Positions 7,973 through 49,328 are shown, numbered from the stretch's first letter. The stretch: DNA of 64,000 bases from Escherichia coli (GCF_003991155.1 NZ_CP031295.1); one strand, 5' to 3'. Numbers and translations: made by a program. Notes: a model not told the origin generated them from the letters alone.

Positions 7973-8606
7973 GATGAAGCTGAGTATGAAATCTCTGGCA
8001 GCACTGCTGATGATGCTGAACGGGGCGGTTATGGCGTCAGAAAACGTGAACACTCCTGAAAACCGCCAGTTCCTGAAGCAGCAGGAAAATTTAAGCAGAC
8101 AACTGCGTGAAAACCTGACCATCAGCTGAAAGCCGGGCGGAGAAGCAGGTGCTGGAAACCCCTTCAGCGTTCAGATAACCATTTCTGGATGAGCTGGTTC
8201 GTAAACAGCAGGCTTCGCAGGACGGGAAACCCGGCAGGGTGCTCTGTATTTTGTGTCGTTTTCCATTCCCGAAGAGGGGCTGAAACGAATGCTGGGCGAA
8301 ACCCGGCACTACGGTATACCCGCCACACTGCGGGGCATGGTGAACAATGACCTGAAGACCACCGCTGAAGCCGTGCTGTCCCTGGTGAAAGACGGCGCGA
8401 CTGATGGTGTTCAGATCGACCCGACGCTGTTTTCACAGTACGGCATTCGCAGTGTACCGGCACTGGTGGTGTTCTGCAGTCATGGATACGACATCATCCG
8501 GGGAAACCTGCGGGTCGGCCAGGCGCTGGAGAAAGTGGCCGCCACGGGTGACTGCCGGCAGGTGGCTCATGATTTACTGGCAGGGAAAGGAGATTCCGGG
8601 AAATGA
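7973..8606 (+). pseudogene. trbC: trbC, disrupted by several frameshifts (signal-peptide N-terminus 7973-8129 stops early; TrbC-like C-terminus in another frame 8253-8606)
   Basis: N-terminal MMKLSMKSLAALLMMLNGAVMA ORF ends after 52 codons; recognisable TrbC C-terminal sequence resumes in a different frame; indels sit at homopolymer runs. Confidence 0.6.
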
Positions 8607-19366: not shown

Positions 19367-21507
19367 ATGAGTTTTAACGCAAAGGATATGACCCAGGGCG
19401 GTCAGATTGCGTCCATGCGTATCCGCATGTTCAGTCAGATCGCCAATATCATACTTTACTGCCTGTTTATTTTTTTCTGGATCCTAGTTGGTCTGGTTTT
19501 ATGGGTAAAAATAAGCTGGCAGACGTTTGTGAATGGCTGCATTTACTGGTGGTGCACCACGCTGGAAGGCATGCGGGATTTAATCAGGTCCCAGCCGGTC
19601 TATGAGATCCAGTATTACGGCAAAACCTTCCGGATGAACGCGGCTCAGGTACTGCATGATAAATATATGATCTGGTGCGGAGAGCAGCTATGGTCCGCAT
19701 TCGTTCTGGCCACAGTTGTGGCACTGGTTATTGCCTGATTACCTTCTTTGTTGTCTCACGGATTCTGGGGCGTCAGGGTAAACAACAGAGCGAAAATGAA
19801 GTCACAGGTGGTCGTCAGCTGACAGACAATCCGAAAGACGTTGCCCGGATGCTGAAAAAGACGGCAAGGACTCCGATATACGGATTGGCGACCTGCCGAT
19901 TATCCGGGATTCCGAAATCAGAACTTCTGTCTGCACGGCACGGTCGGGGCCGGTAAGTCGGAAGTTATCCGTCGTCTGGCCAACTACGCCCGTCAGCGTG
20001 GAGATATGGTGGTGATTTATGACCGTTCAGGGAATTTGTTAAAAGTTACTATGATCCCTCCATCGATAAAATCCTGAATCCGCTGGATGCCCGCTGTGCC
20101 GCACGGGATTTGTGGAAGAGTGCCTGACACAGCCAGATTTTGATAATACCGCAAATACTCTGATCCCGATGGGGACAAAAGAGGACCCGTTCTGGCAGGG
20201 TTCAGGACGTACCATTTTTGCGGAAGCGGCATACCTGATGCGTAATGACCCCAACCGCAGCTACAGCAAACTGGTGGACACACTGCTTTCCATCAAAATT
20301 GAAAAGCTGCGTACCTTCCTGCGTAATTCACCGGCGGCCAACCTGGTGGAAGAGAAAATCGAGAAAACGGCCATATCCATCCGTGCTGTGCTGACCAACT
20401 ACGTGAAAGCCATCCGTTACCTGCAGGGGATTGAGCATAACGGTGAGTCTTTACCATCCGTGACTGGATGCGTGGTGTCCGGAAGATCAGAAAAACGGCT
20501 GGCTGTTTATCTCGTCGAATGCCGACACCCATGCCTCCCTGAAGCCGGTGATCTCCATGTGGCTGTCCATTGCCATTCGTGGTCTGCTGGCAATGGGAGA
20601 AAACCGTAACCGTCGTGTGTGGTTTTCTGTGATGAGCTACCCACGTTACACAAACTGCCGGACTGGTGGAGATCCTGCCGGAAGCCCGTAAGTTCGGTGG
20701 CTGTTATGTGTTTGGTATCCAGTCTATGCCCAGCTGGAAGATATCTACGGTGAAAGCGGCTGCCACGCTGTTTGACGTCATGAACACCCGTGCCTTTTTC
20801 GTTCTCCCAGCCATAAGATTGCAGAGTTCGCTGCCGGTGAGATTGGTGAGAAAGAGCACCTGAAAGCCAGCGAGCAGTATTCCTACGGTGCTGATCCGGT
20901 ACGTGACGGGGTATCGACCGGTAAGGATATGGAGCGTCAGACGCTGGTCAGTTATTCCGACATTCAGTCTCTGCCGGATCTGACCTGTTATGTCACCCTG
21001 CCCGGACCGTATCCGGCAGTAAAACTCTCCCTGAAATATCAGACACGACCGAAGGTCGCTCCGGAGTTTATTCCGCGTGACATCAACCCGGAAATGGAGA
21101 ACCGTCTGAGTGCCGTACTTGCCGCAAGGGAAGCAGAAGGTCGTCAGATGGCCAGCCTCTTCGAACCGGATGTCCCGGAGGTTGTTTCCGGAGAAGACGT
21201 GACTCAGGCTGAACAGCCGCAACAGCCGGTGTCTCCTGCCATCAACGATAAGAAGTCAGATGCAGGTGTGAATGTTCCGGCAGGGGGGATCGAGCAGGAG
21301 CTGAAAATGAAACCGGAAGAAGAGATGGAACAGCAACTGCCACCCGGGATCAGTGAATCCGGTGAAGTGGTGGATATGGCCGTTTATGAGGCATGGCAAC
21401 GGGAGCAGAATCCGGATATCCAGCAGAAGATGCAGCGTCGTGAAGAGGTGAACATCAATGTGCACCGGGAGCGCGGGGAGGATGTTGAGCCGGGAGATGA
21501 TTTCTGA
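19367..21507 (+). pseudogene. traD: traD coupling protein, fragmented into at least 5 frames by small indels
   Basis: TraD N-terminus ([12 protein letters not shown]...), middle and QQP-rich C-terminus (...EPGDDF) are all present but in different frames (ORFs 19367-19738, 19675-19956, 20112-20609, 20666-20863, 20929-21507). Confidence 0.7.
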
Positions 21508-29845: not shown

Positions 29846-29870
29846 AGCCTCCCCGGAAACCGGGGAGGCT
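29846..29870 (+). terminator. Hairpin after finO (agcctccccgg aaa ccggggaggct)
   Basis: Perfect inverted repeat immediately after the finO stop. Confidence 0.45.
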
Positions 29871-31778: not shown

Positions 31779-31791
31779 GGAGTATAGTTAT

Positions 31792-33191: not shown

Positions 33192-33199
33192 AAGTGACC

Positions 33200-33500
33200 T
33201 CTTCTGAATAATCCGGCCCGCACCGGAGGCATTCGCACGCCTGAAGCCTGCCAGCGAACAAAAAAGCAGCACCTCATACAAAAAACAACCTCATCATCCA
33301 CCTTCTGGTGCATCTGGCCCCCCCTGTTTTTGATACAAAACACGCCTCACAGACGGGGAATTTTGCTTATCCACATTTAACTGCAATGGACTTCCCCATA
33401 AGGTTACAACCGTTCATGTCATAAAGCGCCAGGCGCCAGCCTTACAGGGTGCAATGTATCTTTTAAACACCTGTTTATATCTCCTTTAAACTACTTAATT
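33200..33500 (+). other. Putative oriR region with DnaA box TTATCCACA at 33367-33375
   Basis: Consensus DnaA box downstream of repA1 in AT-rich sequence. Confidence 0.4.
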
Positions 33501-34129: not shown

Positions 34130-34780
34130 ATGATTCAAACACGTAATCAATATCTGCAGTTTATGCTGGTTATGCTGGCTGCATGGGGCATTAGTTGGGG
34201 AGCCAGATTTGTCATGGAGCAGGCCGTTCTGCTTTATGGATCAGGAAAAAACTATTTGTTCTTCAGTCATGGTACTGTTCTGATGTACCTGCTGTGTGTT
34301 TTCCTGGTATACCGCCGTTGGATAGCTCCGCTACCGGTCGTTGGTCAGCTGCGCAACGTTGGCGTACCGTGGCTGGTCGGTGCGATGGCCGTGGTGTATG
34401 TCGGTGTATTTCTGCTCGGTAAGGCGCTGGCTCTGCCTGCTGAGCCATTTATGACGAAACTTTTTGCCGATAAGTCCATACCTGACGTGATCCTGACGTT
34501 GCTGACCATCTTTATCCTTGCCCCGTTGAATGAGGAAACGCTGTTCCGGGGGATTATGCTGAACGTCTTCCGTTCACGGTACTGCTGGACGATGTGGCTG
34601 GGGGCGCTGATAACGTCGTTGTTGTTCGTCGCCGCGCACAGCCAGTATCAGAACCTGCTGACACTGGCAGAACTGTTCGGTGGGTTGATTACATCAGTGG
34701 CCAGGATCAGAAGTGGTGGCCTGCTGCTGCCGGTATTGCTGCATATGGAAGCAACCACGCTGGGTTTACTGTTTGGTTGA
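34130..34780 (+). CDS. CPBP-family intramembrane protease (tir-like)
   Basis: 216-aa polytopic protein with EExxxR-like (NEETLFRG) and HxxxH-like motifs. Confidence 0.65.
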   Translation: MIQTRNQYLQFMLVMLAAWGISWGARFVMEQAVLLYGSGKNYLFFSHGTVLMYLLCVFLVYRRWIAPLPVVGQLRNVGVPWLVGAMAVVYVGVFLLGKALALPAEPFMTKLFADKSIPDVILTLLTIFILAPLNEETLFRGIMLNVFRSRYCWTMWLGALITSLLFVAAHSQYQNLLTLAELFGGLITSVARIRSGGLLLPVLLHMEATTLGLLFG

Positions 34781-34872
34781 AAGTTATATTTTTATTAAAC
34801 ATTGTGCGTTAAAGCCTGGTGTGTTTTTTTAGTGGATGTTATATTTAAATATAACTTTTATGGAGGTGAAGA

Positions 34873-35130
34873 ATGCATACCACCCGACTGAAGAGGGTTG
34901 GCGGCTCAGTTATGCTGACCGTCCCACCGGCACTGCTGAATGCGCTGTCTCTGGGCACAGATAATGAAGTTGGCATGGTCATTGATAATGGCCGGCTGAT
35001 TGTTGAGCCGTACAGACGCCCGCAATATTCACTGGCTGAGCTACTGGCACAGTGTGATCCGAATGCTGAAATATCAGCTGAAGAACGAGAATGGCTGGAT
35101 GCACCGGCGACTGGTCAGGAGGAAATCTGA
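34873..35130 (+). CDS. pemI: PemI antitoxin (MazE-like)
   Basis: 85-aa ORF directly upstream of pemK. Confidence 0.8.
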   Translation: MHTTRLKRVGGSVMLTVPPALLNALSLGTDNEVGMVIDNGRLIVEPYRRPQYSLAELLAQCDPNAEISAEEREWLDAPATGQEEI

Positions 35131-35131
35131 C

Positions 35132-35464
35132 ATGGAAAGAGGGGAAATCTGGCTTGTCTCGCTTGATCCTACCGCAGGTCATGAGCAGCAGGGAACGCGG
35201 CCGGTGCTGATTGTCACACCGGCGGCCTTTAATCGCGTGACCCGCCTGCCTGTTGTTGTGCCCGTAACCAGCGGAGGCAATTTTGCCCGCACTGCCGGCT
35301 TTGCGGTGTCGTTGGATGGTGTTGGCATACGTACCACAGGTGTTGTACGTTGCGATCAACCCCGGACAATTGATATGAAAGCACGGGGCGGAAAACGACT
35401 CGAACGGGTTCCGGAGACTATCATGAACGAAGTTCTTGGCCGCCTGTCCACTATTCTGACTTGA
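35132..35464 (+). CDS. pemK: PemK toxin (MazF/Kid endoribonuclease)
   Basis: 110 aa from MERGEIWLVSLDPTAGHEQQGTRPVLIV. Confidence 0.85.
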   Translation: MERGEIWLVSLDPTAGHEQQGTRPVLIVTPAAFNRVTRLPVVVPVTSGGNFARTAGFAVSLDGVGIRTTGVVRCDQPRTIDMKARGGKRLERVPETIMNEVLGRLSTILT

Positions 35465-35657
35465 ACATGGGGTTTGAGGGGCAACTGGATGAAAACGTAC
35501 GATTTAGGGCACTAAAACCGCTGTTGTCCCACCATTCTGGTGATTCCCAAACGTTATTTGGCTAAAAAGTAGTTTTGATGTGGTTTATTTTCCGAATTCC
35601 AAGCGCAGCCCTACTTTCTTGTGCGTATTTGCGTGTTTTGCGCAGTTTTGAAGTTCC

Positions 35658-36127
35658 GGTGATGCTGCCAACTTACTGATTTAGTGTATGATGGTGTTTT
35701 TGAGGTGCTCCAGTGGCTTCTGTTTCTATCAGCTGTCCCTCCTGTTCAGCTACTGACGGGGTGGTGCGTAACGGCAAAAGCACCGCCGGACATCAGCGCT
35801 ATCTCTGCTCTCACTGCCGTAAAACATGGCAACTGCAGTTCACTTACACCGCTTCTCAACCCGGTACGCACCAGAAAATCATTGATATGGCCATGAATGG
35901 CGTTGGATGCCGGGCAACCGCCCGCATTATGGGCGTTGGCCTCAACACGATTTTCCGCCATTTAAAAAACTCAGGCCGCAGTCGGTAACCTCGCGCATAC
36001 AGCCGGGCAGTGACGTCATCGTCTGCGCGGAAATGGACGAACAGTGGGGATACGTCGGGGCTAAATCGCGCCAGCGCTGGCTGTTTTACGCGTATGACAG
36101 GCTCCGGAAGACGGTTGTTGCGCACGT
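35658..36127 (+). mobile_element. insA: Truncated IS1 (left IR, insA intact at 35713-35988, insB truncated)
   Basis: IS1 terminal sequence GGTGATGCTGCCAACTTACTGAT; InsA zinc-finger protein; insB breaks off at ~36127. Confidence 0.8.
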
Positions 36128-36722
36128 ATTGGGGTCTGACGCTCAGTGGAACGAAAACTCACGTTAAGCAACGTTTTCTGCCTCTGACGCCTCTTTTAAT
36201 GGTCTCAGATGTCCTTTGGTCACCAGTTCTGCCAGCGTGAAGGAATAATGGCCGAGCATATTGATATGTCCGTGGCAAAGCGGGGAGAGGCGTGCGATAT
36301 CTTCATCATTCAGTGTTTCACCCTGCGCCCGGAGATGATCCAGGGCTGCCTGCATATAAATAGTGTTCCATAACACGACGGCGTTAGTGACCAGCCCCAG
36401 TGCGCCCAGTTGATCTTCCTGACCGTCGGTATATCGTTTTCTTATCTCACCTTTTTGACCGTGACAGATGGCTCTGGCAACGGCATGGCGACTTTCTCCC
36501 CGATTAAGCTGGGTCAGAATGCGCCGGCGGTAATCTTCATCATCAATATAATTAAGCAGATACAGCGTTTTGTTGATGCGCCCCACTTCAATGATTGCCT
36601 GAGTCAGTCCGGAAGGACGTTCACTTTTCAGCAATGAACGGACCAGCACTGAAGCCTGTACTTTGCCCAGCTTCAGGGAGCCAGCGGTCCGGATCATTTC
36701 GTCCCACTGAAGGACTATTTTT
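36128..36722 (-). mobile_element. Tn3-family (Tn3/Tn2-like) 38-bp IR plus tnpA 3' fragment, truncated by IS26
   Basis: GGGGTCTGACGCTCAGTGGAACGAAAACTCACGTTAAG at 36128-36165; minus-strand ORF encodes a Tn3-type transposase C-terminus. Confidence 0.7.
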
Positions 36723-37542
36723 GGCACTGTTGCAAAGTTAGCGATGAGGCAGCCTTTTGTCTTATTCAAAGGCCTTACATTTCAAAAACTCTGCTTACCA
36801 GGCGCATTTCGCCCAGGGGATCACCATAATAAAATGCTGAGGCCTGGCCTTTGCGTAGTGCACGCATCACCTCAATACCTTTGATGGTGGCGTAAGCCGT
36901 CTTCATGGATTTAAATCCCAGCGTGGCGCCGATTATCCGTTTCAGTTTGCCATGATCGCATTCAATCACGTTGTTCCGGTACTTAATCTGTCGGTGTTCA
37001 ACGTCAGACGGGCACCGGCCTTCGCGTTTGAGCAGAGCAAGCGCGCGACCATAGGCGGGCGCTTTATCCGTGTTGATGAATCGCGGGATCTGCCACTTCT
37101 TCACGTTGTTGAGGATTTTACCCAGAAACCGGTATGCAGCTTTGCTGTTACGACGGGAGGAGAGATAAAAATCGACAGTGCGGCCCCGGCTGTCGACGGC
37201 CCGGTACAGATACGCCCAGCGGCCATTGACCTTCACGTAGGTTTCATCCATGTGCCACGGGCAAAGATCGGAAGGGTTACGCCAGTACCAGCGCAGCCGT
37301 TTTTCCATTTCAGGCGCATAACGCTGAACCCAGCGGTAAATCGTGGAGTGATCGACATTCACTCCGCGTTCAGCCAGCATCTCCTGCAGCTCACGGTAAC
37401 TGATGCCGTATTTGCAGTACCAGCGTACGGCCCACAGAATGATGTCACGCTGAAAATGCCGGCCTTTGAATGGGTTCATGTGCAGCTCCATCAGCAAAAG
37501 GGGATGATAAGTTTATCACCACCGACTATTTGCAACAGTGCC
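36723..37542 (-). mobile_element. tnp26: IS26 copy 1 (820 bp; tnp26 36775-37479, minus strand)
   Basis: 14-bp terminal inverted repeats GGCACTGTTGCAAA at both ends; intact 234-aa transposase from MNPFKGRHF. Confidence 0.9.
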
Positions 37543-39043
37543 ACTTCGACGACTACCTGCTGCCGGCCGAGAAGTTCGCCGCACTCAAGCGCGAGCAGGC
37601 CCTGCCCCTGGCGATCAACCCGAACAGCGACCAGTACCTGGAAGAGCGTTTGCAGCTGCTGGACGAGCAGTTGGCCACCGTCACCCGCCTGGCCAAGGAC
37701 AACGAGCTGCCCGATGCCATCCTCACCGAGTCAGGGCTGAAAATCACCCCGCTGGATGCGGCGGTGCCGGATCGGGCGCAGGCGCTGATCGACCAAACCA
37801 GCCAGTTACTGCCGCGCATCAAGATCACCGAACTGCTGATGGACGTGGACGACTGGACGGGCTTCAGCCGCCACTTCACCCACTTGAAGGACGGGGCCGA
37901 GGCCAAAGACAGGACGTTGCTGCTGTCCGCAATCCTCGGTGATGCGATCAACCTCGGGCTGACCAAGATGGCCGAGTCGAGCCCCGGCCTGACCTACGCC
38001 AAGCTGTCCTGGCTGCAAGCCTGGCACATCCGCGACGAAACCTATTCGGCGGCCTTGGCCGAGCTGGTCAACCACCAGTATCGCCACGCCTTTGCCGCCC
38101 ACTGGGGCGACGGCACGACCTCATCCTCCGATGGCCAGCGCTTCCGCGCGGGTGGCCGGGGCGAGAGCACCGGGCACGTCAACCAAGTACGGTAGCGAGC
38201 GGGACGGCTGTTCTATACCCATATCTCCGACCAGTACGCGCCGTTCAGCACCCGCGTGGTGAATGTCGGCGTCCGCGATTCCACCTATGTGCTCGACGGC
38301 CTGCTGTACCACGAGTCCGACCTGCGGATCGAGGCACTACACCGACACGGCCGGCTTCACCGATCACGTCTTTGCCCTGATGCACCTGCTAGGCTTCCGC
38401 TTCGCGCCGCGCATCCGCGACCTCGGCGAAACCAAGCTGTACGTGCCGCAGGGCGTGCAAGCTACCCGACGTTGCGCCCGCTGATCGGCGGCACCCTGAA
38501 CATCAAGCACGTGCGTGCCCACTGGGACGACATCCTGCGCGGCCAGCTCGATCAAGCAGGGCACCGTCACCGCCTCGCTGATGCTGCGCAAGCTCGGCAG
38601 CTACCCGCGCCAGAACGGACTGGCCGTGGCCCTGCGCGAGCTGGGCCGGATCGAGCGCACGCTGTTCATCCTGGACTGGCTGCAAAGTGTTGAACTGCGC
38701 CGCCGCGTGCATGCCGGCCTGAACAAAGGTGAGGCGCGCAACTCGCTGGCGAGGCGGTGTTCTTCAACCGCCTTGGGGAAATCAGGATCGGAGCTTCGAG
38801 CAGCAGCGCTACGGCCAGCGGCCTCAACACGGTGACGGCGGCTATCGTGCTGTGGAACACGGGTACACGGAACGCCACCCGGGGTTGGTCGAGGCCGGCA
38901 AGCCGGTGGACGGCGAGCTGCTGCAATTCCTGTCGCCGCTGGGCTGGGAGCACATCAACCTAACCGGCGATTACGTCTGGCGGCAGAGCCGCAGACTGGA
39001 AGACGGGAAGTTTCGGCCCTTACGGATGCCCGGAAAACCTTAG
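37543..39043 (+). pseudogene. tnpA: Tn1721/Tn21-subgroup tnpA 3' fragment (copy A), 5'-truncated by IS26, with several frameshifts
   Basis: Tn3-family transposase sequence spread over at least 4 frames; ends at the Tn1721 IR. Confidence 0.75.
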
Positions 39044-39076
39044 CGTACGATTTTTTCCGAATTCTGCGGGCTCCCC
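39039..39076 (+). repeat. Tn1721 38-bp terminal inverted repeat
   Basis: Reverse complement of GGGGAGCCCGCAGAATTCGGAAAAAATCGTACGCTAAG. Confidence 0.7.
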
Positions 39077-39374
39077 TATCTCATCTGCGCAAGGCAGAAC
39101 GTGAAGACGGCCGCCCTGGACCTCGCCCGCGAGCGCCAGGCGCACGAGGCCGGCGCGCGGACCCGCGCCACGGCCCACGAGCGGACGCCGCAGCAGGAGC
39201 GCCAGAAGGCCGCCAGAGAGGCCGAGCGCGGCCGTGAGGCTTGGACGCTAGGGCAGGGCATGAAAAAGCCCGTAGCGGGCTGCTACGGGCGTCTGACGCG
39301 GTGGAAAGGGGGAGGGGATGTTGTCTACATGGCTCTGCTGTAGTGAGTGGGTTGCGCTCCGGCAGCGGTCCTGA

Positions 39375-40025
39375 TCAATCGTCACCCTTTCTCGGTCCTT
39401 CAACGTTCCTGACAACGAGCCTCCTTTTCGCCAATCCATCGACAATCACCGCGAGTCCCTGCTCGAACGCTGCGTCCGGATCGGCTTCGTCGAAGGCGTC
39501 TATCGCGGCCCGCAACAGCGGCGAGAGCGGAGCCTGTTCAACGGTGCCGCCGCGCTCGCCGGCATCGCTGTCGCCGGCCTGCTCCTCAAGCACGGCCCCA
39601 ACAGTGAAGTAGCTGATTGTCATCAGCGCATTGACGGCGTCCCCGGCCGAAAAACCCGCCTCGCAGAGGAAGCGAAGCTGCGCGTCGGCCGTTTCCATCT
39701 GCGGTGCGCCCGGTCGCGTGCCGGCATGGATGCGCGCGCCATCGCGGTAGGCGAGCAGCGCCTGCCTGAAGCTGCGGGCATTCCCGATCAGAAATGAGCG
39801 CCAGTCGTCGTCGGCTCTCGGCACCGAATGCGTATGATTCTCCGCCAGCATGGCTTCGGCCAGTGCGTCGAGCAGCGCCCGCTTGTTCCTGAAGTGCCAG
39901 TAAAGCGCCGGCTGCTGAACCCCCAACCGTTCCGCCAGTTTGCGTGTCGTCAGACCGTCTACGCCGACCTCGTTCAACAGGTCCAGGGCGGCACGGATCA
40001 CTGTATTCGGCTGCAACTTTGTCAT
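39375..40025 (-). CDS. tetR: TetR(A) tetracycline repressor
   Basis: 216 aa from MTKLQPNTVIRAALDLLNEVG; divergent from tetA. Confidence 0.9.
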   Translation of the reverse strand: MTKLQPNTVIRAALDLLNEVGVDGLTTRKLAERLGVQQPALYWHFRNKRALLDALAEAMLAENHTHSVPRADDDWRSFLIGNARSFRQALLAYRDGARIHAGTRPGAPQMETADAQLRFLCEAGFSAGDAVNALMTISYFTVGAVLEEQAGDSDAGERGGTVEQAPLSPLLRAAIDAFDEADPDAAFEQGLAVIVDGLAKRRLVVRNVEGPRKGDD

Positions 40026-40029
40026 GCTT

Positions 40030-40085
40030 GACACTTTATCACTGATAAACATAATATGTCCACCAACTTATCAGTGATAAAGAAT
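40030..40085 (+). promoter_or_regulatory. tet operator palindromes in tetR-tetA intergenic region
   Basis: ttatcactgataa and cttatcagtgataaaga palindromic half-sites between divergent tetR and tetA. Confidence 0.55.
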
Positions 40086-40130
40086 CCGCGCGTTCAATCG
40101 GACCAGCGGAGGCTGGTCCGGAGGCCAGAC

Positions 40131-41330
40131 GTGAAACCCAACAGACCCCTGATCGTAATTCTGAGCACTGTCGCGCTCGACGCTGTCGGCATCGGCCTGA
40201 TTATGCCGGTGCTGCCGGGCCTCCTGCGCGATCTGGTTCACTCGAACGACGTCACCGCCCACTATGGCATTCTGCTGGCGCTGTATGCGTTGATGCAATT
40301 TGCCTGCGCACCTGTGCTGGGCGCGCTGTCGGATCGTTTCGGGCGGCGGCCGGTCTTGCTCGTCTCGCTGGCCGGCGCTGCTGTCGACTACGCCATCATG
40401 GCGACGACGCCTTTCCTTTGGGTTCTCTATATCGGGCGGATCGTGGCCGGCATCACCGGGGCGACTGGGGCGGTAGCCGGCGCTTATATTGCCGATATCA
40501 CTGATGGCGATGAGCGCGCGCGGCACTTCGGCTTCATGAGCGCCTGTTTCGGGTTCGGGATGGTCGCGGGACCTGTGCTCGGTGGGCTGATGGGCGGTTT
40601 CTCCCCCCACGCTCCGTTCTTCGCCGCGGCAGCCTTGAACGGCCTCAATTTCCTGACGGGCTGTTTCCTTTTGCCGGAGTCGCACAAAGGCGAACGCCGG
40701 CCGTTACGCCGGGAGGCTCTCAACCCGCTCGCTTCGTTCCGGTGGGCCCGGGGCATGACCGTCGTCGCCGCCCTGATGGCGGTCTTCTTCATCATGCAAC
40801 TTGTCGGACAGGTGCCGGCCGCGCTTTGGGTCATTTTCGGCGAGGATCGCTTTCACTGGGACGCGACCACGATCGGCATTTCGCTTGCCGCATTTGGCAT
40901 TCTGCATTCACTCGCCCAGGCAATGATCACCGGCCCTGTAGCCGCCCGGCTCGGCGAAAGGCGGGCACTCATGCTCGGAATGATTGCCGACGGCACAGGC
41001 TACATCCTGCTTGCCTTCGCGACACGGGGATGGATGGCGTTCCCGATCATGGTCCTGCTTGCTTCGGGTGGCATCGGAATGCCGGCGCTGCAAGCAATGT
41101 TGTCCAGGCAGGTGGATGAGGAACGTCAGGGGCAGCTGCAAGGCTCACTGGCGGCGCTCACCAGCCTGACCTCGATCGTCGGACCCCTCCTCTTCACGGC
41201 GATCTATGCGGCTTCTATAACAACGTGGAACGGGTGGGCATGGATTGCAGGCGCTGCCCTCTACTTGCTCTGCCTGCCGGCGCTGCGTCGCGGGCTTTGG
41301 AGCGGCGCAGGGCAACGAGCCGATCGCTGA
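40131..41330 (+). CDS. tetA: TetA(A) tetracycline efflux MFS transporter (GTG start)
   Basis: 399 aa from (M)KPNRPLIVILSTVALDAVGIG; 12-TM MFS. Confidence 0.9.
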   Translation: MKPNRPLIVILSTVALDAVGIGLIMPVLPGLLRDLVHSNDVTAHYGILLALYALMQFACAPVLGALSDRFGRRPVLLVSLAGAAVDYAIMATTPFLWVLYIGRIVAGITGATGAVAGAYIADITDGDERARHFGFMSACFGFGMVAGPVLGGLMGGFSPHAPFFAAAALNGLNFLTGCFLLPESHKGERRPLRREALNPLASFRWARGMTVVAALMAVFFIMQLVGQVPAALWVIFGEDRFHWDATTIGISLAAFGILHSLAQAMITGPVAARLGERRALMLGMIADGTGYILLAFATRGWMAFPIMVLLASGGIGMPALQAMLSRQVDEERQGQLQGSLAALTSLTSIVGPLLFTAIYAASITTWNGWAWIAGAALYLLCLPALRRGLWSGAGQRADR

Positions 41331-41468
41331 TCGTGGAAACGATAGGCCTATGCCATGCGGGTCAAGGCGACTTCCGGCAAGCTATACGCGCCCTAGGAGT
41401 GCGGTTGGAACGTTGGCCCAGCCAGATACTCCCGATCACGAGCAGGACGCCGATGATTTGAAGCGCAC

Positions 41469-42245
41469 TCAGCGTCTGATCAAGAACAACCATCCTAGCA
41501 ACACGGCGGTCCCCGGGCTGAGAAAGCCCAGTAAGGAAACAACTGTAGGTTCGAGTCGCGAGATCCCCCGGAACCAAAGGAAGTAGGTTAAACCCGCTCC
41601 GATCAGGCCGAGCCACGCCAGGCCGAGAACATTGGTTCCTGTAGGCATCGGGATTGGCGGATCAAACACTAAAGCTACTGGAACGAGCAGAAGTCCTCCG
41701 GCCGCCAGTTGCCAGGCGGTAAAGGTGAGCAGAGGCACGGGAGGTTGCCACTTGCGGGTCAGCACGGTTCCGAACGCCATGGAAACCGCCCCCGCCAGGC
41801 CCGCTGCGACGCCGACAGGATCTAGCGCTGCGTTTGGTGTCAACACCAACAGCGCCACGCCCGCAGTTCCGCAAATAGCCCCCAGGACCGCCATCAATCG
41901 TATCGGGCTACCTAGCAGAGCGGCAGAGATGAACACGACCATCAGCGGCTGCACAGCGCCTACCGTCGCCGCGACCCCGCCCGGCAGGCGGTAGACCGAA
42001 ATAAACAACAAGCTCCAGAATAGCGAAATATTAAGTGCGCCGAGGATGAAGATGCGCATCCACCAGATTCCCGTTGGAATCTGTCGGACGATCATCACGA
42101 GCAATAAACCCGCCGGCAACGCCCGCAGCATCGCGACCGTCATCGGTGAGAAGTTCGGCAGGTATTGGGTGGTGACAATGTAGGTGCTGCCCCAAATGGC
42201 AGGTGCTATCGCTGTGAACAATAAATCGGGCGTGCGTAATGACAT
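41469..42245 (-). CDS. pecM: PecM-like EamA/DMT-family transporter
   Basis: 258-aa polytopic protein convergent with tetA, as in Tn1721. Confidence 0.7.
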   Translation of the reverse strand: MSLRTPDLLFTAIAPAIWGSTYIVTTQYLPNFSPMTVAMLRALPAGLLLVMIVRQIPTGIWWMRIFILGALNISLFWSLLFISVYRLPGGVAATVGAVQPLMVVFISAALLGSPIRLMAVLGAICGTAGVALLVLTPNAALDPVGVAAGLAGAVSMAFGTVLTRKWQPPVPLLTFTAWQLAAGGLLLVPVALVFDPPIPMPTGTNVLGLAWLGLIGAGLTYFLWFRGISRLEPTVVSLLGFLSPGTAVLLGWLFLIRR

Positions 42246-42382
42246 GCGATTACAAGACCTCCGCTACGGCGATGGGTTTTTGAGAGTTGCAGGCGCCGCG
42301 ATGACCGCACCCTGACTTGGACTGGCCCTGCCTCGCACCAATCCACCTGCGGCTATGGCCGCGATCATGCGAGGCCCGAAAA

Positions 42383-42720
42383 TTACACGACCTGTACACG
42401 TCCGCCGAACCCGGAACGCAACAGAGCTTCGTGGGCATCCCGATCCGGGTCGTAGCAGCAGTCCTGGACCAAACGCACGTCGTAGTCCGCATCACTAGCC
42501 CAGGCGACGCTTGAAAGAACAACGCCGGTGGTGCTTATCCCGGCCATGACAAGCGTGCTTACGCCGCGCGTCCGAAGGTCGGCGTCGAGCGCCGTGCCAT
42601 AAAAGACGCTGGCTCGCGGACATGCATAGAAAAGGTCGCCCCGTTCGATCGCAAGCCCTTCGACGGGCAGACCGGTGCGAAATCGTCCGCTCGGGAGATA
42701 CGGTGAGATTTGGCGATTCG
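42383..42720 (-). pseudogene. Isochorismatase-family (cysteine hydrolase) C-terminal fragment
   Basis: C-terminus ...STLVMAGISTTGVVLSSVAWASDADYDV... resembles isochorismatase family; no N-terminus; upper boundary approximate. Confidence 0.35.
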
Positions 42721-42739
42721 TCGCCGGCGGCGCATGTTC

Positions 42740-44320
42740 ATACTCTTCGCCGAGCGAAAAGTTGGGGAACAGCACGGGCCGGCCGCGCAAGGCGTGCTGG
42801 CAGCCGTGCAGACCCTGCGTGAGATGAACGCCGACAACCTGCGCAAGGTGCCGGCCGATGCACCCACGGCCTTCATCAAGCCGCGCTGGAAGCCGCTGGT
42901 GATCACCCCGGAAGGCCTCGACCGGAAATTCTACGAAATCTGCGCCCTGTCCGAGCTGAAGAACGCCCTGCGCTCCGGCGACATCTGGGTCAAGGCTCGC
43001 GGCAGTTCCGCGACTTCGACGACTACCTGCTGCCGGCCGAGAAGTTCGCCGCACTCAAGCGCGAGCAGGCCTGCGGCGATCAACCCGAACAGCGACCAGT
43101 ACACGGAAGAGCGTTTGCAGCTGCTGGACGAGCAGTTGGCCACCGTCACCCGCGGCCAGGACGGCAAGCTGCCCGATGCCATCCTCACCGAGTCAGGGCT
43201 GAAAATCACCCCGCTGGATGCGTGCCGGATCGGCGCAGGCGCTGATCGACCAAACCAGCCAGGTTACTGCCGCGCATCAAGATCACCGAACTGCTGATGG
43301 ACGTGGACGACTGGACGGGCTTCAGCCGCCACTTCACCCACTTGAAGGACGGGCCGAGGCCAAAGACAGGACGTTGCTGCTGTCCGCAATCCTCGGTGAT
43401 GCGATCAGCCCGGGCTGACCAAGATGGCCGAGCCGAGCCCGGCCTGACTGCCAAGCTGTCGTCGCGGCAAGCACGGCACATCCGCGACGAAACCTATTCG
43501 GCGGCCTTGGCCGAGCTGGTCAACCACCAGTATCGCCACGCCTTTGCCGCCCACTGGGGCGACGGCGACCTCATCCTCCGATGGCCAGCGCTTCCGCGCG
43601 GGTGGCCGGGCGAGAGCACCGGCACGTCAACCCGAATACGGTAGCGAGCCGGGACGGCTGTTCTACCCATATCTCCGACCAGTACGCGCCGTTCAGCACC
43701 CGCGTGGTGAATGTCGGCGTCCGCGATTCCACCTATGTGCTCGACGGCCTGCTGTACCACGGTCCGACCTGCGGATCGAGGAGCACTACACCGACACGGC
43801 CGGCCCGCGATCACGTCTTTTGCCCTGATGCACCTGCTGGGCTTCCGCTTCGCGCCGCGCATCCGCGACCTCGGCGAAACCAAGCTGTACGTGCCGCAGG
43901 GCGTGCAAGCCTACCCGACGTTGCGCCCGCTGATCGGCGGCACCCTGAACATCAAGCACGTGCGTGCCCACTGGGACGACATCCTGCGCCTGGCCAGCTC
44001 GATCAAGCAGGGCACCGTCACCGCCTCGCTGATGCTGCGCAAGCTCGGCAGCTACCCGCCAGAACGGACTGGCCGTGGCCCTGCGCGAGCTGGGCGGATC
44101 GAGCACGCTGTTCATCTGGACTGGCTGCAAAGTGTTGAACTGCGCCGCCGCGTGCATGCCGGCCTGAACAAAGGTGAGGCGCGCAACTCGCTGGCGGGGG
44201 TGTTCTTCAACCGCCTTGGGGAAATCAGGGATCGGAGCTTCGAGCAGCAGCGCTACCGGGCCAGCGGCCTCAACCTGGTGACGGCGGCTATCGTGCTGTG
44301 GAACACGGTGTACCTGGAAC
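42740..44320 (+). pseudogene. tnpA: Second copy (copy B) of Tn1721-type tnpA 3' segment, heavily affected by indels/substitutions, 3'-truncated by IS26
   Basis: Same transposase sequence as 37543-39043 but extends further 5' and is broken into many frames; 5' boundary approximate. Confidence 0.65.
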
Positions 44321-45140
44321 GGCACTGTTGCAAAGTTAGCGATGAGGCAGCCTTTTGTCTTATTCAAAGGCCTTACATTTCAAAAACTCTGCTTACCAGG
44401 CGCATTTCGCCCAGGGGATCACCATAATAAAATGCTGAGGCCTGGCCTTTTGCGTAGTGCACGCATCACCTCAATACCTTTGATGGTGGCGTAAGCCGTC
44501 TTCATGGATTTAAATCCCAGCGTGGCGCCGATTATCCGTTTCAGTTTGCCATGATCGCATTCAATCACGTTGTTCCGGTACTTAATCTGTCGGTGTTCAA
44601 CGTCAGACGGCACACGGCCTTCGCGTTTGAGCAGAGCAAGCGCGCGACCATAGGCGGGCGCTTTATCCGTGTTGATGAATCGCGGGATCTGCCACTTCTT
44701 CACGTTGTTGAGGATTTTACCCAGAAACCGGTATGCAGCTTTGCTGTTACGACGGGAGGAGAGATAAAATCGACAGTGCGGCCCCGGCTGTCGACGGCCC
44801 GGTACAGATACGCCCAGCGGCCATTGACCTTCACGTAGGTTTCATCCATGTGCCACGGGCAAAGATCGGAAGGGTTACGCCAGTACCAGCGCAGCCGTTT
44901 TTCCATTTCAGGCGCATAACGCTGAACCCAGCGGTAAATCGTGGAGTGATCGACATTCACTCCGCGTTCAGCCAGCATCTCCTGCAGCTCACGGTAACTG
45001 ATGCCGTATTTGCAGTACCAGCGTACGGCCCACAGAATGATGTCACGCTGAAAATGCCGGCCTTTGAATGGGTTCATGTGCAGCTCCATCAGCAAAAGGG
45101 GATGATAAGTTTATCACCACCGACTATTTGCAACAGTGCC
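44321..45140 (-). mobile_element. tnp26: IS26 copy 2 with frameshifted transposase
   Basis: Terminal IRs present; tnp26 split into ORFs 44419-44703 and 44700-45095 by single-base indels relative to copies 1 and 3. Confidence 0.8.
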
Positions 45141-45479
45141 CGCCCGCCTATGGTCGCGCGCTTGCTCTGCTCAAACGCGAAGGCCGGTGCCCGTCTGACG
45201 TTGAACACCGACAGATTAAGTACCGGAACAACGTGATTGAATGCGATCATGGCAAACTGAAACGGATAATCGGCGCCACGCTGGGATTTAAATCCATGAA
45301 GACGGCTTACGCCACCATCAAAGGTATTGAGGTGATGCGTGCACTACGCAAAGGCCAGGCCTCAGCATTTTATTATGGTGATCCCCTGGGCGAAATGCGC
45401 CTGGTAAGCAGAGTTTTTGAAATGTAAGGCCTTTGAATAAGACAAAAGGCTGCCTCATCGCTAACTTTGCAACAGTGCC
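45141..45479 (+). mobile_element. Partial IS26 (3' 339 bp with IRR), inverted relative to copy 2
   Basis: tnp26 C-terminal coding sequence plus terminal IR TTTGCAACAGTGCC at 45466-45479. Confidence 0.75.
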
Positions 45480-45616
45480 AATTTATGAGTAAAGGATTAT
45501 GTCCACGATAAGCACCTGGGTCGATTCCTGGGAGGCGGCCATGAGGGTAGGGAAGCGCCGTCCCGTCAAGTCAGCGTAATGCTCTGCCAGTGTTACAACC
45601 AATTAACCAATTCTGA

Positions 45617-46432
45617 TTAGAAAAACTCATCGAGCATCAAATGAAACTGCAATTTATTCATATCAGGATTATCAATACCATATTTTTGAAAAAGCCGTTT
45701 CTGTAATGAAGGAGAAAACTCACCGAGGCAGTTCCATAGGATGGCAAGATCCTGGTATCGGTCTGCGATTCCGACTCGTCCAACATCAATACAACCTATT
45801 AATTTCCCCTCGTCAAAAATAAGGTTATCAAGTGAGAAATCACCATGAGTGACGACTGAATCCGGTGAGAATGGCAAAAGCTTATGCATTTCTTTCCAGA
45901 CTTGTTCAACAGGCCAGCCATTACGCTCGTCATCAAAATCACTCGCATCAACCAAACCGTTATTCATTCGTGATTGCGCCTGAGCGAGACGAAATACGCG
46001 ATCGCTGTTAAAAGGACAATTACAAACAGGAATCGAATGCAACCGGCGCAGGAACACTGCCAGCGCATCAACAATATTTTCACCTGAATCAGGATATTCT
46101 TCTAATACCTGGAATGCTGTTTTCCCGGGGATCGCAGTGGTGAGTAACCATGCATCATCAGGAGTACGGATAAAATGCTTGATGGTCGGAAGAGGCATAA
46201 ATTCCGTCAGCCAGTTTAGTCTGACCATCTCATCTGTAACATCATTGGCAACGCTACCTTTGCCATGTTTCAGAAACAACTCTGGCGCATCGGGCTTCCC
46301 ATACAATCGATAGATTGTCGCACCTGATTGCCCGACATTATCGCGAGCCCATTTATACCCATATAAATCAGCATCCATGTTGGAATTTAATCGCGGCCTC
46401 GAGCAAGACGTTTCCCGTTGAATATGGCTCAT
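45617..46432 (-). CDS. aph(3')-Ia: APH(3')-Ia aminoglycoside phosphotransferase (kanamycin/neomycin resistance)
   Basis: 271 aa MSHIQRETSCSRPRLNSNMDADLYGYKWARDNVGQSG...; flanked by IS26 as in Tn4352-like structures. Confidence 0.9.
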   Translation of the reverse strand: MSHIQRETSCSRPRLNSNMDADLYGYKWARDNVGQSGATIYRLYGKPDAPELFLKHGKGSVANDVTDEMVRLNWLTEFMPLPTIKHFIRTPDDAWLLTTAIPGKTAFQVLEEYPDSGENIVDALAVFLRRLHSIPVCNCPFNSDRVFRLAQAQSRMNNGLVDASDFDDERNGWPVEQVWKEMHKLLPFSPDSVVTHGDFSLDNLIFDEGKLIGCIDVGRVGIADRYQDLAILWNCLGEFSPSLQKRLFQKYGIDNPDMNKLQFHLMLDEFF

Positions 46433-46519
46433 AACACCCCTTGTATTACTGTTTATGTAAGCAGACAGTTTTATTGTTCATGATGATATATTTTTATCTT
46501 GTGCAATGTAACATCAGAG

Positions 46520-47339
46520 GGCACTGTTGCAAATAGTCGGTGGTGATAAACTTATCATCCCCTTTTGCTGATGGAGCTGCACATGAACCCATTCAAAGGC
46601 CGGCATTTTCAGCGTGACATCATTCTGTGGGCCGTACGCTGGTACTGCAAATACGGCATCAGTTACCGTGAGCTGCAGGAGATGCTGGCTGAACGCGGAG
46701 TGAATGTCGATCACTCCACGATTTACCGCTGGGTTCAGCGTTATGCGCCTGAAATGGAAAAACGGCTGCGCTGGTACTGGCGTAACCCTTCCGATCTTTG
46801 CCCGTGGCACATGGATGAAACCTACGTGAAGGTCAATGGCCGCTGGGCGTATCTGTACCGGGCCGTCGACAGCCGGGGCCGCACTGTCGATTTTTATATC
46901 TCCTCCCGTCGTAACAGCAAAGCTGCATACCGGTTTCTGGGTAAAATCCTCAACAACGTGAAGAAGTGGCAGATCCCGCGATTCATCAACACGGATAAAG
47001 CGCCCGCCTATGGTCGCGCGCTTGCTCTGCTCAAACGCGAAGGCCGGTGCCCGTCTGACGTTGAACACCGACAGATTAAGTACCGGAACAACGTGATTGA
47101 ATGCGATCATGGCAAACTGAAACGGATAATCGGCGCCACGCTGGGATTTAAATCCATGAAGACGGCTTACGCCACCATCAAAGGTATTGAGGTGATGCGT
47201 GCACTACGCAAAGGCCAGGCCTCAGCATTTTATTATGGTGATCCCCTGGGCGAAATGCGCCTGGTAAGCAGAGTTTTTGAAATGTAAGGCCTTTGAATAA
47301 GACAAAAGGCTGCCTCATCGCTAACTTTGCAACAGTGCC
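46520..47339 (+). mobile_element. tnp26: IS26 copy 3 (tnp26 46583-47287)
   Basis: 14-bp IRs at both ends, intact transposase. Confidence 0.9.
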
Positions 47340-47660
47340 ACGAACAGCACCTTCAGATAATGGTATCCAGTCAATTTGTGCCTTCATAATACCAGTCATC
47401 GCTCCATGTCGTTCCGGAGAGCACCACACCATTCCTTCAGACCAGCGAACCAGTTCACGCAACTCCATAACTTTTGGATGTGATTCCGGTGCATCATCAG
47501 GAAGTGGAAGGCCAGATGGATTAAAAATGCGGACGTCTGCGCCCATTGCAGTTAACAAACGGCCTGCTTCCTCTGTCGCCAGTCGACTGTATGAGCGCTC
47601 ACGAACTGAGCCATAAAGCATTAGAATACGAGGTGGGTGAGATATTGCCGGTATCCCCAT
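47340..47660 (-). pseudogene. arsH: arsH (NADPH-dependent FMN reductase) 5' fragment truncated by IS26
   Basis: N-terminal ~107 codons with ...[13 protein letters not shown]...[24 protein letters not shown] then IS26 boundary. Confidence 0.6.
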
Positions 47661-47820
47661 TTTTTGCTCAGTTATTGCAGTATCAGATAAATCAGGAACT
47701 ATATTATTTAACCTATTAATTTTTATGATTTTCTCTATATATTCTTGGCTTAATTAGGTGTGCTTCGCACGGGTAGATACAGCATTCGTCAATCATGACA
47801 GTTATGAGTTTTCCGGTTAC

Positions 47821-48144
47821 TTACCCATTTTTGCCAGCGGGTTCCGCAACATCTGTTTTACTGTTTACACAGCACTCTTCACGTAAGAATTCGATGATAG
47901 CTTCCAGTATTTCATATTGAGAGACGCACATGAGCGTTCGACTCTCCCGGTTTTGTGTGACGAGTCCTACTGATACCAGGGCTGAAATATGATGACTTAA
48001 CGTTGATGAAGGAATGCCAAGCTGCTTTTGCAATTCACCTACAGGTAAACCTTGTTCTCCAGCTTTTACAAGATGTTTGAATATGAACAAACGGGTCGGG
48101 TGACCCAGTTCTTTTAGAGCTTTAGCTACTTCTTCCAGTTGCAT
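47821..48144 (-). CDS. arsR: ArsR/SmtB-family metalloregulator
   Basis: 107 aa with HTH (PTRLFIFKHL...LPVGELQKQLGIPSSTLSHHISAL) and C-terminal cysteine pair. Confidence 0.65.
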   Translation of the reverse strand: MQLEEVAKALKELGHPTRLFIFKHLVKAGEQGLPVGELQKQLGIPSSTLSHHISALVSVGLVTQNRESRTLMCVSQYEILEAIIEFLREECCVNSKTDVAEPAGKNG

Positions 48145-48248
48145 GTGACAACCCTCTGCCTGATGATATTTCGATAATACCAGAAATATCTTGACTATAA
48201 TTATATTTCGATTATTCTAGAATAATAGATTCTGTCAAGAGGTTTAGT

Positions 48249-49328
48249 ATGAATAGTTGGATTCCTATGTTGCAAGATGCCGCAGAGATGTTTGTTTTTC
48301 TGGCTGTTGAGCTTTCATTGCTGTTTATTGTCATTAGTGCCGGTGTGAGCCTGATAAGGCAAAAAGTCCCGGATCATAAAATTCAGCAGATGATGGGGGC
48401 GAGAAAAGGTAAGGGGTATCTGTTGGCCTCGTTGCTGGGAGCCGTTACCCCTTTCTGTAGTTGCTCAACAATTCCAATGTTGCGAGGATTGTTGTCTGCG
48501 AAAGCGGGGTTTGGTCCGACACTCACTTTTTTGTTTGTTTCACCGTTGCTTAATCCCATTATCGTGGGACTAATGTGGGTTACCTTTGGCTGGAAAGTAA
48601 CTTTGCTGTATGCGATCATCGCTGCCGGTGTTTCAGTTCTTTCCAGTATTATACTGGATTATTTAGGGTTTGAACGTCATATTGTTGAATACAAAAATTC
48701 AGTATCAGGTAGTTGCGCCACCAAGTGCGGTGATTCTGAAGCTTCGGTAAAAACGAATTGCTGTACTTCATCAGCAAAAACCATAATTAACTTAAAGACA
48801 GTAAAGAAAGAGCAAAATATATCGGCGTGTTGTCCCTCAATTCTATCAGAAAAATCTTCTGAAAGTTGTTGCAGCAGCGAGAGTCAGGGCAACAGAAATC
48901 TCACAATGAATGCCACCTCTGGTCTAATAAAATTAGCAATGAAAGATGCCTTACAACAGTTTAAGGATGTTCTGCCTTATCTTTTGTTAGCTATATTAAT
49001 AGGTTCATTTATTTATGGTTTTATCCCTTCAGAGTGGATTGCAGCTCATGCCGGTGCAGATAATCCATTAGCCATACCGCTCAGTGCTGTTGTTGGTATT
49101 CCGCTGTATATTCGTGCTGAGGCCGTAATACCACTTGCATCAGTTCTGATGACTAAAGGTATGGGCCTCGGAGCTTTAATGGCCTTGATAATCGGTAGTG
49201 CTGGAGCGAGTCTGACAGAAGTAATATTGCTTAAATCAATGTTCAGAATGCCCATGATAATCGCATTTCTGACGGTTATCTTAGGTATGGCAATCCTTAT
49301 GGGATATTTAACGCAATTTTTGTTTTAA
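48249..49328 (+). CDS. arsP: ArsP-like permease (putative organoarsenical efflux)
   Basis: 359-aa polytopic protein with TPFCSCS motif; divergent from arsR. Confidence 0.6.
   Translation: MNSWIPMLQDAAEMFVFLAVELSLLFIVISAGVSLIRQKVPDHKIQQMMGARKGKGYLLASLLGAVTPFCSCSTIPMLRGLLSAKAGFGPTLTFLFVSPLLNPIIVGLMWVTFGWKVTLLYAIIAAGVSVLSSIILDYLGFERHIVEYKNSVSGSCATKCGDSEASVKTNCCTSSAKTIINLKTVKKEQNISACCPSILSEKSSESCCSSESQGNRNLTMNATSGLIKLAMKDALQQFKDVLPYLLLAILIGSFIYGFIPSEWIAAHAGADNPLAIPLSAVVGIPLYIRAEAVIPLASVLMTKGMGLGALMALIIGSAGASLTEVILLKSMFRMPMIIAFLTVILGMAILMGYLTQFLF

Follow-up and report, generated by a model that had tools for sequence, protein, structure and literature searches.

The tet region of Tn1721 is reportedly flanked by a direct duplication of the 3' end of tnpA, an arrangement attributed to 1992 work by Allmeier et al. 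The 64,000-nucleotide stretch of Escherichia coli DNA analyzed here (the window) contains a Tn1721-derived module in which tetR, tetA, and pecM likewise lie between a direct duplication of the tnpA 3' part. It resembles Tn1721 in its order (tnpA end, inverted repeat, tetR, tetA, pecM, second tnpA fragment), in the exact 38-bp inverted repeat at the end of the first tnpA fragment (copy A), and in the near-identity of the two tnpA copies in the window's relatives. The repeat was located at 39039-39076 on the minus strand as an exact match (0 expected by chance) to the 38-bp Tn1721 terminal inverted repeat. Unlike Tn1721, the module is cut by IS26 at both ends and is devoid of tnpR, res, orfI, and the 5' part of tnpA, and its second tnpA fragment (copy B) lacks the last ∼190 nt together with the outer inverted repeat. 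A complete transposition module (tnpA, tnpR, res, and outer inverted repeats) is absent from the window. Since IS26 truncates copy A at 37542/37543 and copy B at 44320, and since a single inverted repeat was found, the module is a remnant rather than an intact transposon. The window comes from an F-type E. coli plasmid of the IncFIB/FIC kind, on which IS26 bounds an island composed of this truncated tet(A) module and a segment with aph(3')-Ia. This island (IS26, truncated Tn1721, IS26, aph(3')-Ia, IS26) is like that of pSMS35_130-type IncFIB/FIC plasmids, and the same gene order and junctions occur in 354 PLSDB records covering at least 80% of the island; unlike in pSMS35_130, the IS26 boundary in copy A lies 654 nt further out, and the flanking backbone differs from those of L001 and L002 (pSMS35_130).

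Two further described systems concern errors of assembly. Polishers that keep one alignment per read align reads preferentially to the less erroneous instance of a repeat (Wick & Holt 2022, Polypolish, PMC8812927), and Oxford Nanopore (ONT) consensus sequences carry errors at a rate of roughly 0.4-1%, about 70% of them in Dcm motifs, followed by errors of homopolymer length (Wick, Judd & Holt 2019, PMC6591954). We propose, from the sequence, that the divergent repeat copies and patches in the window (Table 1) are very probably residual nanopore errors in stretches that short-read polishing failed to correct. In the plasmid itself, the two tnpA fragments would repeat 1,348 bp almost perfectly in direct orientation, and all copies of IS26 would be identical or nearly so. 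A draft would have been built from long reads, presumably ONT reads of native Dcm-methylated DNA to judge by the error type, and accurate short reads would then have corrected most of it. Where short reads were missing or not uniquely placeable, namely in the duplicated tnpA segment, in the adjoining part of IS26 copy 2, and in patches of trbC and traD, raw long-read consensus with its typical errors would have been kept. Both the platform and the polishing route are inferred. Incomplete long-read polishing, which the preliminary description had put forward as the cause, is supported by the private nature of the differences, the type of error, the edges of the patches, and the recurrence of one of the frameshifts elsewhere.

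Table 1. Features of the window relevant to the divergent patches
Feature	Position	Strand	Basis or detail
trbC divergent patch	8109..8229	+	five private deletions (6 bases) at homopolymers/Dcm sites
traD divergent patch	19731..20799	+	twelve private deletions; gene over three frames
CPBP protease gene, isolated in-frame loss	34678..34681	+	Dcm site and G run, CCTGGTGGGG to CGGTGGG
IS26 copy 1, intact, Tnp26 234 aa (37479 to 36778)	36723..37542	-	100% identical to reference-plasmid IS26
tnpA copy A, 5' part, Tn1721-type, error-free	37543..38183	+	zero differences vs L001, L003
tnpA copy A, 3' part of duplicated segment, divergent patch	38184..38888	+	identical private differences vs three references
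tnpA copy A, unique tail (stop codon at 39043) and 38-bp terminal inverted repeat, clean	38889..39076	+	no reference differences
tetR(A), intact, 216 aa	39378..40025	-	full-length tblastn; region identical to NZ_CP041112
tet(A), intact, 399 aa	40131..41330	+	tblastn; region identical to NZ_CP041112
pecM / EamA-family transporter gene, 1-nt deletion at 41480, 258-aa product	41469..42245	-	tblastn
Isochorismatase-family cysteine hydrolase gene, intact	42386..42790	-	100% identity over 135 aa
tnpA copy B, 5' part without copy A counterpart, clean	42775..42992	+	homology to longer tnpA in L012
tnpA copy B, duplicated segment, divergent patch	42993..44320	+	reference comparison
IS26 copy 2, split transposase gene	44321..45140	-	four single-base indels; clean from 44766 on
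Partial IS26, 341 nt, inverted, adjoining copy 2	45141..45481	+	real; conserved in relatives
aph(3')-Ia, intact, 271 aa	45620..46432	-	100% identity
IS26 copy 3, intact, one substitution at 46898 (Tnp26 L105I)	46520..47339	+	

The independent related plasmids L001, L002, and L003 agree with one another, and the window departs from each of them by the same ∼75 events. In the relatives, a single position of 1348 separates tnpA copy A from copy B (99.93% identity, zero gaps), and the IS26 copies are 100% identical to each other. The window's own versions of these copies occur in none of the 72,556 plasmids (PLSDB) or 5,426 complete E. coli genomes that were searched: copy B reached a best identity of 96.4% (2,699 E. 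coli records holding copy B, of the 5,426 genomes), copy A one of 98.6% (PLSDB), and the traD patch one of 98.0% (PLSDB). The surroundings are essentially identical to the relatives, both in the 4.1-kb tet region alongside and across 28 kb of the backbone (about 100.0% identity at 25001-36720 and 47348-64000); the unique tet region equals that of NZ_CP041112 save for position 41480, and 41481-42992 has zero differences from the references. Further, inherited pseudogenes would be common to related plasmids or would turn up in short-read assemblies, and no change in tnpA, trbC, or traD is shared in this way; pecM 41480, IS26 L105I, and trbA +G, by contrast, are.

Relative to the nearest references, the whole window carries 58 indel events. 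Indeed, as had been claimed, these are concentrated in multi-copy segments: 38 of them fall in 5.5 kb (IS26 copy 2 and both tnpA copies, multi-copy being judged within the window), that is, in 8.6% of the window (binomial p about 1e-26). A comparison of copy A (37540-38878) with copy B (43010-44325) gave 94.7% identity, with 23 mismatches and 35 gap openings, which bears out the many short deletions and substitutions that had been noticed between them. These had been described as changes of copy B relative to copy A, but copy A is damaged too: its patch holds 11 private indel events and 6 substitutions, with 5 Dcm sites corrupted, and the 1.33-kb patch of copy B has 23 private indel events, as many substitutions, and 7 corrupted Dcm sites. 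The earlier span for copy B, 42740-44320, likewise needs trimming, as the segment shared with copy A begins at 43010; tnpA homology does reach back to ∼42775, where the sequence is clean.

In copies A and B, the edges of the damage agree with those of the repeat within 8-17 nt, the errors of copy B beginning at 42993, 17 nt ahead of the boundary, and the final error of copy A lying at 38880, close to the repeat end at ∼38888. The clean part of copy A corresponds to the most heavily damaged part of copy B, the 3' half of the repeat is damaged in both, and errors sit at different positions in the two copies, with two shared hot spots carrying differing miscalls. In these respects, the locus is like the polishing residues described for repeats, where errors persist in a single instance, the second instance and the flanking unique sequence being clean; patch edges follow repeat edges, and homopolymer-length errors are prominent (PMC8812927). 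It is unlike them in that (i) both tnpA instances are damaged in the 3' half, (ii) the trbC and traD patches are unrepeated within the window, and (iii) the error density is unusually high, at 3-5% (about 3.5-5% of positions in copy B). The damaged 3' half in both copies is not predicted by a picture of one clean and one starved instance, unless a third copy exists elsewhere in the genome. Moreover, the density in copy B lies above the rate published for ONT consensus sequences and requires a consensus of low depth or a single-read bridge to account for it; many deletions of 2-5 nt outside homopolymers, unlike in the profile of PMC6591954, are also what is expected of a low-depth or single-read consensus, not a deep one.

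These features raise the question of whether gaps or dead ends in short-read coverage, arising for example from library bias and filled by low-depth long-read consensus, were the proximate cause, with multi-mapping secondary. The error density, the 3' half damaged in both tnpA copies, the short trbC patch (about 120 nt), and the single-copy state of trbC and traD in the window all speak for this. However, the close fit of the copy A and copy B patch edges to the repeat boundaries and the largely complementary damage of the two copies speak against it, as does GC content, which does not separate clean from damaged segments, because tetR/tetA at 62-63% GC are clean and the trbC/traD patches at 52-53% are damaged. 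We regard coverage gaps as a rather unlikely main cause.

The preliminary description had confined the errors to repeats, but single-copy sequence is also affected: trbC has 5 indels, traD 12, and the CPBP gene one (34678), each of these genes being single-copy within the window. The caution that it urged over the trbC and traD pseudogene calls was well placed. The trbC deletions were not found in L004, L005, L008, or 4 further relatives; traD is intact, at 717 aa, in L026, L027, and L030-L032; and none of the 17 trbC/traD deletions appeared in seven more relatives, both genes being intact in every relative examined. In the traD patch, CCTGG is changed to CACGG at 19757 and 20102. The CPBP variant product had no match on record, and the loss is probably a lone residual error.

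Both the trbC and the traD patch are single-copy in the window and so give no proof of multi-mapping. Of the routes by which they could have escaped correction, the likeliest are that the cell harbored another replicon with tra genes or that short-read coverage failed locally. The first route would entail a second F-like plasmid with a different tra allele, leaving the tra assembly a partly mixed or mis-polished consensus and thereby giving rise to a mosaic of alleles as well as to the patches. The tra region does alternate between two known alleles, the L004 type and the NZ_CP037904 type, and the damaged trbC and traD patches sit within allele-2 blocks; no PLSDB record matches this mosaic (best identities 99.6% and 98.0%), and seven relatives that carry the window's trbA allele lack it. 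Nevertheless, the largest allele-2 block (5013-7632, 71 informative sites) contains zero indels, no second replicon is visible within the window, and the tra mosaic could be real, because F-plasmid tra regions recombine naturally. We consider a second F-like plasmid possible, though on balance doubtful.

The type of error is distinctive. Deletions outnumber insertions by 54 to 4, and 27 of the 54 lie in homopolymer runs two or more bases long (16 in runs of three or more). Corruption affects 18 of 26 Dcm sites (CCWGG; 69%) within the patches; elsewhere it affects 2 of 146 (Fisher p 2e-16), and of 58 control-motif sites within the patches it affects 3 (p 2e-9 against the Dcm sites). The change of CCTGG to CACGG occurs at six independent sites, and CTWGG, the product of 5mC deamination, was seen at none of the corrupted CCWGG sites. 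A mutagenic process aimed at repeated DNA in this isolate, making the deletions real and their Dcm bias a matter of methylation-dependent repair, is barely credible; a candidate would be error-prone repair synthesis during recombination or gene conversion among the tnpA repeats, the IS26 copies, and a second tra region. Errors from PacBio CLR, 454, or Ion Torrent reads are also highly unlikely: homopolymer-length deletions are common to several platforms, but we know of no platform other than nanopore that miscalls Dcm sites. Nanopore basecalling, being sensitive to methylation, fits both the extent of CCWGG corruption and the repeated change from CCTGG to CACGG, and the corrupted Dcm sites, the dominance of deletions, and the half of deletions that shorten homopolymers are like the ONT errors of Enterobacteriaceae (PMC6591954). 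Unlike in that profile, Dcm motifs account here for about 40% of difference events (an estimate), versus about 70% there.

Relative to copy 1, IS26 copy 2 has zero substitutions and four indels of one base each (+T at 44448, -G and +A at 44611-44614, and -A at 44765), which spread its transposase over three frames; copies 1 and 3 are intact, in keeping with the earlier observation that copy 2 alone is frameshifted. Its 125-aa frameshift product was found in 316 collection blocks; contigs 50 kb or longer account for 80% of these, versus 18% for wild-type Tnp26 (Fisher p 5e-126), and at the example loci inspected, adjacent housekeeping genes are broken into short ORFs. The Tnp26 L105I product of copy 3 is found in 7,059 collection blocks on contigs of all sizes and is a common natural allele.

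Genuine decay, in which unselected tnpA fragments and one redundant IS26 copy gained small deletions and substitutions in this lineage, is extremely unlikely. The tnpA fragments were already truncated by IS26 and non-functional, and thus mutations would be tolerable, and some private-looking changes did prove to be natural alleles. However, (i) about 5% divergence in 1.3 kb stands beside a near-identical tet flank and backbone; (ii) the changes are present in no other record among thousands; (iii) the same type of damage affects trbC and traD, which the relatives keep intact; (iv) the deletion bias, the CT to AC change at Dcm sites, and the homopolymers characterize basecalling errors, not mutation spectra; and (v) the identical IS26 frameshift recurs mainly on long contigs. 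Since sequencing errors are almost certainly behind them, the broken genes should not be read as real.

Not every private-looking change is an artifact, because three such changes, at first counted as errors, turned out to be natural alleles, each being present in other records: IS26 copy 3 46898, trbA 11775 (+G), and, probably, pecM 41480. While tetR, tetA, and aph(3')-Ia are full length, as had been stated, pecM is not, contrary to the same statement; the deletion at 41480 shifts the frame after residue 255 and yields 258 aa instead of 294 aa. The exact 258-aa product, ungapped, is found in GCA_900480395.1 and Logan ERR1100512 (contigs of ∼4 kb each), and because these are two short-read records with the same product, this form is probably natural.

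In summary, the biological weight of these differences is small, as the island is of a very common IS26 / truncated Tn1721 / aph(3')-Ia type on an F-type plasmid. For annotation, it matters that neither the IS26 transposase frameshift nor the garbling of trbC and fragmentation of traD is evidence for lost transposition or conjugation, and the apparent 5% divergence of the tnpA repeat is unfit for dating the duplication or for arguing that recombination between the copies is blocked. Comparison with relatives, together with the Dcm-motif and contig-size tests, can diagnose unpolished patches without reads, and through the same tests the 258-aa pecM product, Tnp26 L105I, and trbA +G can be recognized as genuine alleles instead of being written off as errors.

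The patches dense in indels private to this assembly are very probably residual long-read errors, most likely of nanopore origin, rather than biology. The preliminary description had read them as incomplete polishing of a long-read assembly, and this is backed by (i) their privacy to the assembly, (ii) a nanopore signature, (iii) the geometry of the patches, and (iv) the recurrence of a frameshift elsewhere. Aligning the whole window to its nearest reference records (L004, L006, L001, and L007), we counted 58 indel events, namely 54 deletions in the window and four insertions; 38 of the 58 fall within the 5.5 kb that are multi-copy in the window (binomial p about 1e-26). Per kb, the 3' half of copy A has 15.6 indels and copy B 17.3 (copies A and B being the two Tn1721-type tnpA fragments), as compared with 0.2 for the unique tet region and 0-0.1 across 32 kb of backbone. 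The proposed concentration of indels in multi-copy segments holds for these 38 events, but not for trbC (8109-8229) and traD (19731-20799), which together carry 17 deletions, nor for a CPBP-family protease gene, all of which are single-copy in the window. The last shows a lone in-frame loss at 34678-34681 (CCTGGTGGGG to CGGTGGG) in otherwise error-free backbone, probably an isolated residual error where a Dcm site (CCWGG) adjoins a G run. Exact-product look-ups of its 216-aa variant product and of a 123-aa traD fragment gave no match on record.

Copies A and B align over ~1.35 kb with 94.7% identity, 23 mismatches, and 35 gap openings, which bears out the numerous deletions and substitutions ascribed to copy B. 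The preliminary description needs amending in that copy B is not alone in its divergence; copy A, error-free at 37543-38183, is itself error-dense at 38184-38880. IS26 copy 2 is indeed frameshifted: relative to copy 1, it has four single-base indels but no substitution, and its transposase reading frame is broken into three. Among the genes said to be intact, tetR, tetA, and aph(3')-Ia have their full length, whereas the pecM product has 258 aa in place of 294 aa.

Layout of the IS26-bounded resistance island of the window.
Feature	Coordinates	Context
IS26-bounded resistance island	36723-47339	Backbone: IncFIB/FIC F-type plasmid
IS26 copy 1		First element of the island
Tn1721-type tnpA fragment, copy A	37543-39043	After IS26 copy 1
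Tn1721 inverted repeat, 38-bp, exact	39039-39076	At the end of copy A
tetR(A), tet(A), pecM		In that order after the Tn1721 inverted repeat
Cysteine hydrolase gene		Between pecM and copy B
tnpA fragment, copy B	about 42775-44320	After the cysteine hydrolase gene
IS26 copy 2		After copy B
IS26 remnant, inverted, 341-nt	45141-45481	Directly adjoins IS26 copy 2
aph(3')-Ia, then IS26 copy 3		Last elements of the island

At least 80% of the island is present in 354 records of the plasmid database PLSDB; its comparison with references rests on an alignment of the island alone, leaving aside the 500-nt flanks (unrelated backbone). The inverted IS26 remnant, which relatives share without a base change, is a true scar of rearrangement. 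Three independent plasmids, namely pRHB02-C06_2, pMUB-MIN12-1, and pSMS35_130, are concordant with one another, and the same ~75 events separate each of them from the window; between their own copies A and B, 1 of 1348 positions differs with no gaps, and their IS26 copies are all identical. The best identity found for copy B was 96.4% (among 2,699 records with at least 80% of the query, from 5,426 complete E. coli genomes), while the best PLSDB identities for copy A and the traD patch were 98.6% and 98.0%, respectively. Elsewhere, the window is essentially identical to its relatives at 25001-36720 and 47348-64000, and the unique tet region is the NZ_CP041112 sequence, with a sole difference at position 41480. 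Because the lineage is so near its relatives, it cannot have gained 5% of real divergence within one 1.3-kb segment. Furthermore, the 17 trbC/traD deletions are absent from all seven further assemblies with the window's trbA allele, and trbC and traD are intact in every one of these that covers them.

Homopolymer shortening accounts for 27 of the 54 deletions, and nine touch a Dcm motif. Inside the error-dense patches, 18 of 26 CCWGG sites are corrupted, as compared with 2 of 146 outside (Fisher p 2e-16) and with 3 of 58 control-motif sites inside (Fisher p 2e-9), and at six independent sites a CCTGG of the relatives reads CACGG in the window. This resembles the errors of an Oxford Nanopore (ONT) consensus, about 70% of which, in an enterobacterial genome, lay in Dcm motifs, homopolymer-length errors coming next (Wick et al. 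2019, PMC6591954). Deamination of 5mC was ruled out as a source of the Dcm-site changes, CTWGG occurring at no altered site. High GC content was likewise ruled out as the cause of the patches, since tetR/tetA have a GC content close to that of the tnpA fragments yet are clean, and the tra patches have about 52% GC. The error density of copy B (about 3.5-5%) is above that typical of a deep ONT consensus, suggesting that this stretch came from a low-depth consensus or was bridged by a single read. In the backbone, comparison with CP090276 shows three substitutions, at 61926-61930 and 62887, by which CCWGG sites arise or change (CCGGG to CCAGG and CCTGG to CCAGG); these are either alleles or Dcm-site miscalls.

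The edges of the patches follow the repeats. The unique 5' part of copy B (42775-42992) is error-free; its errors begin at 42993, 17 nt ahead of the A/B repeat boundary, and extend unbroken 445 nt into IS26 copy 2. The last error of copy A lies at 38880, close to the end of the repeat (about 38888). Over repeat positions 1-645, copy A is error-free, while copy B is at its densest. This geometry fits a polishing failure in repeats, in which polishing with one alignment per read draws reads to the less erroneous instance and leaves the other uncovered (Wick and Holt 2022, PMC8812927). Downstream of 38184, both copies are error-dense, for which a third tnpA copy at another site of the genome would be an explanation. 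Error positions differ between copies A and B, and their two shared hot spots show unlike miscalls, which indicates independent noise rather than inherited changes. The reference plasmid pSMS35_130 lacks the window's 37544-38197 (654 nt), with its IS26 sitting deeper in copy A; that junction (38197/38198) lies 14 nt from the clean-to-dirty switch of copy A, a nearness that may be coincidence.

In IS26 copy 2, an A5-to-A4 frameshift yields a 125-aa product that recurs in 316 blocks of a public gene collection. Contigs of at least 50 kb hold 80% of these blocks but 18% of the 73,074 wild-type Tnp26 blocks (Fisher p 5e-126). Being recurrent and mainly on long contigs, the frameshift is a systematic error and not an allele. 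At example loci of the 125-aa product, adjacent housekeeping genes lie in many short ORFs, and contigs bear names like tig00000001. In a related plasmid contig (GCA_019431005.1, JABTXQ010000002.1, 112.9 kb), the entire tra region is in dozens of short ORFs; this, too, looks like a public assembly from long reads in which frameshifts went uncorrected.

Three further changes were rejected as errors and are probably all real variants. The shortened pecM (41469-42245, minus strand) results from a 1-nt deletion (delC) at 41480, and two short-read records (GCA_900480395.1 and Logan ERR1100512) carry the exact 258-aa product, with an ungapped DNA alignment, on ~4-kb contigs; the truncated form of this tet(A)-linked transporter gene is probably a naturally occurring frameshift allele, neither intact nor an artefact. 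The substitution at 46898 in IS26 copy 3 (Tnp26 L105I) occurs in 7,059 blocks, about one tenth of the wild-type number, on contigs of every size; with Leu at this residue in copies 1 and 2 and Ile in copy 3, the island has two IS26 alleles. In trbA, a +G at 11775 (G6 to G7) alters the last TrbA residues and lengthens the protein from 115 aa to 122 aa. Its product is present on 15 contigs, mostly of 10-50 kb, and it is probably a natural allele marking a sub-lineage of these plasmids.

The trbC and traD patches have a setting of their own. At 3999-8483 and 19681-20841, two F-type tra alleles (L004-type and NZ_CP037904-type) form a mosaic in the window, and both patches fall inside blocks switched from the former to the latter. 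Mixing of the assembly with a second, co-resident F-like plasmid would account for the mosaic as well as the patches; the patches could also stem from local gaps in short-read coverage. No PLSDB record and none of the seven trbA-allele relatives matches this mosaic, and a reference with the mosaic but without the deletions was found in neither set. The largest NZ_CP037904-type block (5013-7632) is wholly clean, which speaks against a second plasmid. The mosaic itself may reflect real tra recombination.

The pseudogene calls in IS26 copy 2, trbC, and traD are thus to be treated as artefacts pending read evidence, and so is the divergence that the tnpA repeats seem to show.
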